DNA from: Escherichia coli O157:H7
Lineage (GTDB): Bacteria > Pseudomonadota > Gammaproteobacteria > Enterobacterales > Enterobacteriaceae
Strand: one strand, 5' to 3'
DNA: 64,000 bases
Assembly (NCBI RefSeq): GCF_013167455.1
Contig: NZ_CP038328.1
The position numbers are program-made. Shown here piece by piece: positions 10,001 through 13,000 of the stretch. How positions within the stretch are numbered: position 1 is the first letter of the stretch; each line of letters opens with the position of its first letter.

Positions 10001-13000
10001 GAGATCCTGAAAAACGAGCTGGCAGAGAAAGAGAAAAATCTGGCCTTGTTGCTGGACTCTGTAGCGAACGATAAAGCTGCCCTGATTGCGAAATCTCGCG
10101 ATACCTTTATTCGTCTGCTGAACGCCACCCCGAACGGTGTGATCCGCAACTCCGACGTGGCAAAAGGTGTGGTCGAAACCTCCCTGAACGTCGGTGTGGT
10201 GACCATGACTGACAATAACGTAGAAATTCACTGTCTGATCCGTTCTCTGATCGACAGCGGTAAAGACTACGTGGTGAGCATGCTGGATTCGCTGGGTAAA
10301 CTGGCTGGCGCGAAAACCGAAGCGAAAGGCGCATATCCTGGCTGGCAGCCGGACGCTAATTCTCCGGTGATGCATCTGGTACGTGAAACCTATCAGCGCC
10401 TGTTCAACAAGACGCCGAACATCCAGATTATCCACGCGGGCCTGGAATGTGGTCTGTTCAAAAAACCGTATCCGGAAATGGACATGGTTTCTATCGGGCC
10501 AACAATCACCGGTCCACACTCTCCGGATGAGCAAGTTCACATCGAAAGCGTAGGTCATTACTGGACACTGCTGACTGAACTGCTGAAAGAAATTCCGGCG
10601 AAGTAATTATTTGATTTGCTGCCGGATGGCGTTTAATCGCCTTCCGGCAGTTTCATCCTTCATTATCCTTCGATAAAAGCCATCCCTGTGAACGTTCGTC
10701 GCGGGTTGCCACGTTCAATCTGGTGATGGAACATTCGCCGCTGCGATTTCAGCACTGCGCTATTTTCCTGTTGCTGCTGCTCCAGCTTCCAGGCAATCAG
10801 CAATCGCGCCAGCCGTTTGTTAGCATGCTGGCTGCGTTCTGACTGAACCTTCACGCTAATCCCGGTTGCCAGATGCGTGGCGCGTACCGCCGAGTCGGTT
10901 TTATTGACATGTTGACCGCCCGGCCCCGACGGACGCAGCGTCTCATAACGGATTGCATCCGATTGTTCCTGCTCATCAGCGGTAAAACGCCCAATGCCCA
11001 GAAACCAGTTTTTGCGCCCATGATGAGGCCGATACGGACTCAGACAAATCCACTGAATAGTGCCGCACCAACTTTCGCTTAACGCCCATGCGTTGTCGCC
11101 ATCCAGAGAAATCAGCGCCGAACGCAGCGTGTCAGAGTAGCGGCCCGTTTCTGTTTCCAGCACCGTTACCGCGACGTCTTGTCGGGTAAAAACGACCAAC
11201 TGAGAAGAACGCTGCGCCAATCGGGTAGCCGCGTCCGGGGTGTAAATCTGGCATCCCCACTACGCGCTGCATGTTGGGTAAATTTGCCGTGGTGTGTAAT
11301 TGTTGGATCGCTAAACTCTCGATCCACAGGTCATCAGATGCGATGGTAAATACCGCATCGGATAAGGGACGAATATATTTGCCCATGTACCATTCCATTT
11401 ATACTCGTCATACTTCAAGTTGCATGTACTGCGACTGCGTTCGTTCACCCCAGTCACTTACTTATGTAAGCTCCTGGGGATTCACTCGCTTGTCGCCTTC
11501 CTGCAACTCGAATTATTTAGAGTATATAAATATAAAAATCAGGAAATGGCAGACGAATCCAGGGCAAGAAAAAAAAGAATTAATCCTGGAAAGGTCTGCA
11601 AAGAGTCATTGATAAAGGATTTGTCATGATTTACCTCCTTGCAGTTTGTGGAATAAGAAAACGCGCACATACCAGGCGGGCGTTATTTTCATTGCAAGCT
11701 GGATTTAATGTTGCGGTTTATATCGCATAGAAAAATTAGTAAACCACGCTCCCCGGCATTCAACGCGCTGCTGCTTAACTGTCTGAAAACCATAACGTTC
11801 AAAAAAGGGTTTTGCGGTTATGCTGGCGTCCACCGTAAGTTCGGATTCAGACTTAATCCAAGGTTTTAACAAAGCGCTGGCAACCCCACGGCGGGTGTAT
11901 TCAGGGTCAACAAATAACATATCGATATAATGTTCAATGCGGGAAATAAAACCAACCGGTTGTGCATTAATGACTGCAACCCGCACTTGTGATTTCGCGA
12001 GTTTCTCCTTCCAGCGAGATTCGTCAATCTGCGCCCAGGCGGCAATTTGTTGTGGTGAATAATGCTGACTGGCGGTCATCATAACCGCTCTAATGAAAAT
12101 AGCGCATAGTTGCTGAAAATCGCCAGGCTGATAGTTTCTTATTTGTATGTTATTCATAATATAAATTCAAAAACGCATGCGAAACGCTTCTGCCATTTTC
12201 CCAATTTTATGCATTTGGTTGTTATCTCGAGCCAGTTTATGAGGTTCAGGTTTCAGAATGGCAATGAGCAACCATGCTTGCTCATCAAACGCACCCTGAC
12301 AATATACCAAATGCGATTCGTCATTCGTTCTGCTGAATTGGCGCAACTGTGGCGGAAATGGATTATTCACATTTGCCAGATGAATATGAGCAACTCGCTC
12401 AAATTTGATTAATGGCCAAGTAAACGAGTCGTCGTAGAGTGCATCGCGACCAAATATATCTGGCAAAACACCGTCACGCTTATAGGAAATAAAATCCGCC
12501 GTTAACGCATCAAGCTCCTCTGCTGTAAGTTGCAGGCGAATAAGTTTTGTTTTGAATACCCGCATCCTTATTCCTTAAAGTCATTGAAATCATCATCCGT
12601 CATATCATTAAGATATTTTTCAGCTCGGCGTGTAATTTCCTCTAATCTTGCAGCACTTGGACGGAAGCGCGCCTTTATGGGCTTTTTCTCCTCTTGTTCA
12701 GCAAGCATGTCCATTAACGCTTCGAATGCGCTGGCACTTAAGAGATATCCTGCGGGGCGATTATTAGAAAGAACCGCAACCGGTTGATCAATAAAGTATT
12801 TAGCTGGGTTTTTACGTAATTCAGTGATATTGACCGATTTTTCAGCGAGAATTCGATGCATACAGTGATCCCCTCATAATAATGCACACCAGAATATACA
12901 TAATAGTATACATCATAATCCCAGCACCAGTTGTCTTTCCATTTGAGGGTCAAGCAACGTCACATGCAGCCCCACCAGTCGCACACCGCGCCCGCCGCGG

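Follow-up and report, generated by a model that had tools for sequence, protein, structure and literature searches.

Remnants of the rtcB2-prfH operon at a K-12-type deletion scar in Escherichia coli O157:H7

The DNA between pepD and yafP in an Escherichia coli O157:H7 genome is almost certainly an inactivated rtcB2-prfH operon: a pair of pseudogenes at a K-12-type deletion scar, and the same allele as ykfJ/prfH of K-12. In the window, that is, the whole 64,000-nt stretch of contig NZ_CP038328.1 that was analysed, ORF calling placed the rtcB2 and prfH remnants on the minus strand, between pepD (9149-10606, plus strand) and yafP (11705-12157, minus strand). An earlier note on this DNA had described an out-of-frame N-terminal fragment of RtcB and a PrfH lacking its N-terminus at 10663-11398. 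ORFs were indeed found at these positions, with family E-values far beyond chance. The two ORFs overlap and are read in different frames. The components of the locus are as follows.

10663-11220, minus strand: 185-aa ORF starting at TTG; codons 1-12 (11185-11220) come from rtcB2 DNA in the wrong reading frame, and the remainder is PrfH residues 32-204
11132-11398, minus strand: 88-aa ORF comprising four extra upstream codons, RtcB2 residues 1-68 and 16 out-of-frame prfH codons; its stop is at 11132-11134
10663-11188, minus strand: prfH-derived DNA, codons 32-204 plus the stop (10663-10665); its upper end takes in the junction repeat, and it aligns without gaps in BLAST to nt 92-615 of intact prfH
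11183-11386, minus strand: rtcB2-derived DNA, codons 1-68 of 379, with the family start ATG at 11384-11386; it aligns in BLAST to nt 1-207 of intact rtcB2
11180-11188: deletion junction, a 9-nt imperfect direct repeat, TG(T/C)CGGGTA as read on the plus strand, with the exact shared block CGGGTA at 11183-11188

The 185-aa ORF matched the NCBIfam model TIGR03072, peptide chain release factor H, with an E-value of 4e-81 and a score of 271.3 bits (cut-off 166.65). The match was limited to ORF residues 13-182, corresponding to profile positions 31-200 of 200, such that the first 30 positions of the family were absent. Residues 87-175 also matched Pfam RF-1 (E = 6e-24), and the GGQ motif, G120-Q122 of PrfH, is retained as ORF residues 101-103. 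The remnant nevertheless falls short of a full-length PrfH of ~200-204 aa, as it lacks the N-terminal part of the rRNA-recognition domain (residues 2-98), which forms the A1493P pocket.

The 88-aa ORF matched the RtcB-family model NF007153 from ORF residue 5, covering positions 1-69 of 379 (E = 1e-30). Its score of 106.9 bits is below the family cut-off of 407, with 68 of the 379 residues kept. The same ORF also matched the prfH-linked RtcB model, TIGR03073, over positions 1-58 of 356. According to BLAST, the stub is orthologous to E. coli RtcB2: nt 1-207 of rtcB2 share 97-99% identity with intact alleles. The start of intact rtcB2 is placed by PGAP at the ATG equivalent to 11384-11386.

The locus was then aligned with intact E. 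coli loci, namely those of strain 2014C-4587 (L002), an ST131 strain (L003) and ten others. From pepD to yafP, intact loci carry rtcB2 (1,140 bp, 379 aa) and prfH (615 bp, 204 aa), joined by a 4-bp stop/start overlap, ATGA. Exactly 1,027 bp of this arrangement are absent from the window, in a single gap. The lost stretch runs from about nt 201-208 of rtcB2 to the end of that gene and on through the first ~91-98 nt of prfH. The ATGA overlap falls inside it, and coupling to an intact upstream rtcB2 is accordingly absent. The alignment thus bears out the earlier proposal that a deletion had removed most of rtcB and the start of prfH: the first 68 codons of RtcB2 run out of frame into codons 32-204 of PrfH. 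Because 1,027 is 3n + 1 and no multiple of 3, the remnants are out of frame with each other and the RtcB2 stub stops after 16 further codons.

The junction coincides with a short repeat. In a three-way comparison with the flanks from L002 and L003, and in the overlapping BLAST segments, TG(T/C)CGGGTA occurred once in the window and twice, 1,027 bp apart, in the intact loci. The junction was the same in all 12 deletion-carrying loci read, K-12 included. In 11 of these, the BLAST alignments ended at rtcB nt 1-207 and prfH nt 92-615; in the twelfth, L006, the prfH alignment began at nt 93. The likeness to K-12 asserted in the earlier note extends to the nucleotide at this point: the junction of BW25113 is identical to that of the window.

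We infer that slippage or illegitimate recombination between short direct repeats produced the deletion, a junction of this kind being the usual signature of such events. The single 1,027-bp deletion, between two copies of the 6-9-nt direct repeat, took out residues 69-379 of RtcB2 together with the rtcB2 stop, the prfH start coupled to it and the first 31 residues of PrfH. The PrfH part is left without its native start and without the N-terminal residues that form one wall of the pocket for the cleaved 16S 3' end. As the RtcB2 stub and the PrfH remnant would both be unable to do their jobs, we regard the locus as a pair of pseudogenes. Judged from its sequence, function at the O157:H7-type locus of the window has probably been lost.

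The scar is common in the species. Among 5,426 complete E. coli genomes, 2,688 had at least 80% coverage of a 100-bp junction probe, and 2,715 contained the interior of the segment that the scar lacks. Almost every genome carries either the scar or the intact segment, and the near 50:50 split, in a collection whose sampling is heavily biased, provides a useful figure for studies of RtcB2-PrfH defence. The deletion alleles form no clade, and the haplotypes that flank them are divergent. For example, the remnant allele L007 differs from the intact allele L002 at 5 of 724 flanking sites and from the window at 27. Over about 1 kb, intact and deleted rtcB2-prfH were each found both with and without yafNO. 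The first four loci had suggested that the deletion is linked to insertion of the yafNO toxin-antitoxin pair, a reading rejected because all four combinations exist.

Divergent flanking haplotypes and the lack of a clade are also what might be seen if separate lineages, such as K-12 and O157:H7, had each acquired the deletion on their own at this short repeat, and slippage at a direct repeat could recur. We consider such recurrence quite unlikely. A single junction was present in 12 of 12 sampled deletion alleles and no alternative junction was seen, while 6-9-nt copies separated by 1 kb make a poor substrate for slippage, and many other microhomologies exist in the 1.7-kb region. Moreover, the region is visibly mosaic, and homologous recombination therefore suffices to spread one ancestral deletion. 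The data fit such a single event, moved between backgrounds by homologous recombination. The prevalence and the mosaicism are also compatible with an intact/deleted split maintained by balancing selection, in which the cost of carrying RtcB2-PrfH would be set against protection from colicin E3 and CdiA ribotoxins. The scar would then be something other than a pseudogene drifting neutrally; we regard this explanation as doubtful.

The role of the intact system helps to define what the remnant lacks. Colicin E3 and CdiA-CT(ECL) cleave 16S rRNA between A1493 and G1494 (PMC9304027). On such a damaged and stalled ribosome, PrfH occupies the empty A site, hydrolyses the peptidyl-tRNA and frees the nascent peptide (Tian et al. 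2022, Maviza et al. 2022; PMC9304027). The subunits are then split and the RNA ligase RtcB2 reseals the 16S rRNA (PMC9304027). According to cryo-EM data, R189 and G10-P12 of PrfH sandwich the A1493P base, which the main chain of residue 9 reads (PMC9304027). As G10-P12 and residue 9 all lie within the deleted residues 1-31, this wall of the A1493P pocket is missing from the remnant. The rtcB2-prfH operon of ATCC 25922 is protective against colicin E3 (Maviza et al. 2022, PMC9223846). By contrast, the truncated operon of BW25113 gives no such protection, and deleting the remnant has no effect (Maviza et al. 2022, PMC9223846).

The possibility raised in the earlier note that 185 aa is the conserved full length of PrfH was rejected. 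The TIGR03072 family model has 200 positions and starts 30 positions earlier than the match in the ORF, the solved protein is 204 aa long, and the deleted segment is common. The solved E. coli PrfH (PDB 7SA4 chain 8), an active protein, is, in addition, nearly identical to the intact alleles, and the pocket wall at G10-P12 belongs to the part that the 185-aa form lacks.

Public annotation treats the same frame in two ways. In an identical O157-type record, RefSeq/PGAP gives the 185-codon TTG frame as an intact 'prfH', WP_050557030.1 (L001 1664-2221, equivalent to window 10663-11220). A truncated 185-codon frame is likewise annotated as intact prfH in L005 (1128-1685; WP_050576438.1). K-12 (L004 1664-2170) is among the genomes in which the prfH frame is an N-terminally incomplete pseudogene in RefSeq. 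The pseudogene/intact contrast between K-12 and O157 is one of annotation and no biological difference. WP_050557030.1 (185 aa) should be handled as a pseudogene product, being a truncated remnant whose N-terminus is spurious.

It is conceivable that a truncated PrfH, of 185 aa from the TTG or of 166 aa from a GTG at V39, is still made and retains some activity, such as peptidyl-tRNA hydrolysis by the GGQ domain, the locus then being a shortened gene. We hold this to be very improbable. Although the frame is open, its GGQ domain is intact and its PrfH match (271 bits) exceeds the cut-off, the ORF has neither the native start nor translational coupling to rtcB2, out-of-frame rtcB DNA encodes its first 12 residues, and a promoter scan of 10560-11760 found no sigma-70-like promoter. 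The loss of the A1493P pocket-wall residues further argues against activity, and while PGAP calls the ORF intact in O157-type records, remnant knockouts of BW25113 had no colicin E3 phenotype (PMC9223846). Finally, the ORF is still open in roughly 2,100 of the 2,688 deletion carriers, but the GGQ region has also been lost in about 600 genomes.

This further loss is due to a second, frameshifting deletion of 169 bp inside the prfH remnant, found with a single shared junction in three of the 12 deletion-carrying loci.

L006, ~1459-1462: 169-bp deletion site in the prfH remnant
L009, ~1826-1829: 169-bp deletion site in the prfH remnant
L025: 169-bp deletion site in the prfH remnant

The deletion removes prfH nt ~285-453, GGQ included. 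Its flanks were detected in 5,364 genomes using a 101-bp junction probe, with pieces up to 500 bp apart joined, and a separate probe for the interior was detected in 4,755. These counts yield an indirect estimate of about 600 carriers among the 5,426 genomes.

Pairwise pN/pS was 0.077 among undamaged remnant alleles and 0.073 among intact alleles. Such a low value in the remnants would be in keeping with a truncated product under constraint. However, purifying selection on the remnant was rejected because the remnants form no clade and most variants are shared with intact alleles. We attribute the low remnant pN/pS to diversity that the remnants share with intact alleles through descent or exchange, a mosaic ancestry that also accounts for it under inactivation. 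In 12 remnant and 12 intact alleles, the ratios of replacement to silent variants were 10 : 13 for remnant-only, 4 : 21 for intact-only and 3 : 20 for shared variants. Remnant-private variants were thus enriched for replacements relative to all others (10 : 13 versus 7 : 41; odds ratio 4.5, Fisher p = 0.015), which, with a small sample, related sequences and majority-rule polarisation, is a supporting trend. Among the 24 alleles read, two changes were private to the window: P79L, in the rRNA-contact segment, and S116P, four residues before GGQ. An assembly or sequencing artefact can be dismissed, as the same 1,301 bp are 100% identical in the independent complete genome of E. coli FRIK1989 and the junction is found in 2,688 complete genomes. 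An internal probe of the window was also 100% identical to an O157:H7 genome.

Two repeats adjoin the remnants.

10619-10650: inverted repeat with 16-bp arms, 88% complementary and without a spacer, in the 56-bp gap between the convergent pepD and prfH
11404-11527, minus strand: dispersed intergenic repeat of the ERIC type, lying immediately upstream of the rtcB2 remnant and before yafP; it is context and lies outside the scar

The inverted repeat might form a terminator hairpin shared by pepD and prfH; it was not flagged in a terminator scan. The sequence GTGAATCCCCAGGAGCTTACATAAGTAAGTGACTGGGG, which we take to be the ERIC core, matches exactly at 11448-11485. The ERIC-type repeat aligned over its full length with Rfam RF02818 V_AS5 ('Vibrio RNA AS5') at a sub-threshold 48.9 bits (gathering score 96), which suggests that the RF02818 family is itself ERIC-like. 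The Rfam scan yielded no match above gathering thresholds. A 1,301-bp query containing the repeat had a median of 6 matching places per genome. The repeat varies in length between loci: window 11437-11502 has no counterpart in L002, and 11403-11532 has none in L003. In the spacer before yafP, positions 11621-11693 (plus strand) gave a chance-level match to the Salmonella sRNA STnc350 (21 bits, gathering score 60; E = 0.42).

The neighbourhood is variable in other respects. The genes yafO and yafN (window 12167-12861) encode a toxin-antitoxin pair between dinB and yafP that is polymorphic for presence or absence (loci L002, L003, L005, L006, L013, L019 and L020). Where yafNO is absent, yafP directly overlaps dinB. 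In L014 and L015, yafO has an internal stop, and in L015 an IS5 adjoins a truncated yafN. Some strains with an intact operon have an additional ~0.8-kb segment between pepD and prfH (L013 82-850, L014 46-853, L015 1616-2423 and L016 46-853). This segment encodes a 169-aa 'metal-dependent hydrolase', on the prfH strand, and a small hypothetical protein; in strains that carry it, PrfH ends in FVAV instead of FIEG. In strain SA186 (L018 2901-3598), an IS1A has inserted between rtcB2 and yafP, on the upstream side of an operon that is otherwise intact.

The scar itself was already known, O157:H7 lineage included, and is real but ordinary. A deletion of ~1,000 nt, affecting the C-terminal portion of the upstream gene and the N-terminal portion of RFH, was described in MG1655, W3110 and the O157:H7 strains Sakai and EDL933, with CFT073, 042 and UTI89 uninterrupted (Baranov et al. 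2006, PMC1586002). It was also noted that the product of the deletion would lack a central beta-strand of domain 2 (Baranov et al. 2006, PMC1586002). As a discovery, the locus therefore carries little weight: the deletion had been reported in 2006, along with its rough size and its occurrence in K-12 and O157:H7, and the function of the operon and the inertness of the remnant followed in 2022. New here are the prevalence, the second deletion of 169 bp, the mosaic flanking haplotypes and the mismatch in annotation between K-12 and O157. In practical terms, O157:H7-type strains, like K-12, should be without RtcB2-PrfH protection against colicin E3-type toxins.

We compared the locus with three known systems. 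The PrfH part is homologous to domains 2-4 of the class I release factor RF2, the product of prfB (TIGR00020, E = 6e-26; RF2 structures, E ~1e-19). At 91 bits, however, the remnant is far under the RF2 cut-off of 370, and it differs from RF2 in having neither domain 1 nor a role in reading stop codons. The prfH ORF is a PrfH remnant and no RF2 paralogue in use.

The intact RtcB2-PrfH operon (ATCC 25922; PDB 7SA4) is orthologous to the window locus, flanks included, and the retained parts share 95-99% DNA identity. What the window still encodes, relative to that operon, is the GGQ domain plus most of the rRNA-recognition domain; missing are more than 80% of RtcB2 (residues 69-379), the start of prfH and the first 31 residues of PrfH, G10-P12 among them.

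The closest counterpart is ykfJ/prfH of K-12 (MG1655, W3110 and BW25113), which has the same position between pepD and yafP, the same 1,027-bp deletion with an identical junction, the same 84/88-aa RtcB stub and the same 185-codon TTG frame, at 97.7% nucleotide identity over 1,301 bp. The two differ by point differences only. In its PrfH part, the window has P79L, S116P and S138T, and residues 56 and 175 are I and V in the window and V and A in K-12. By analogy with the same allele in BW25113, which was shown to give no protection, the window locus should not protect against colicin E3.
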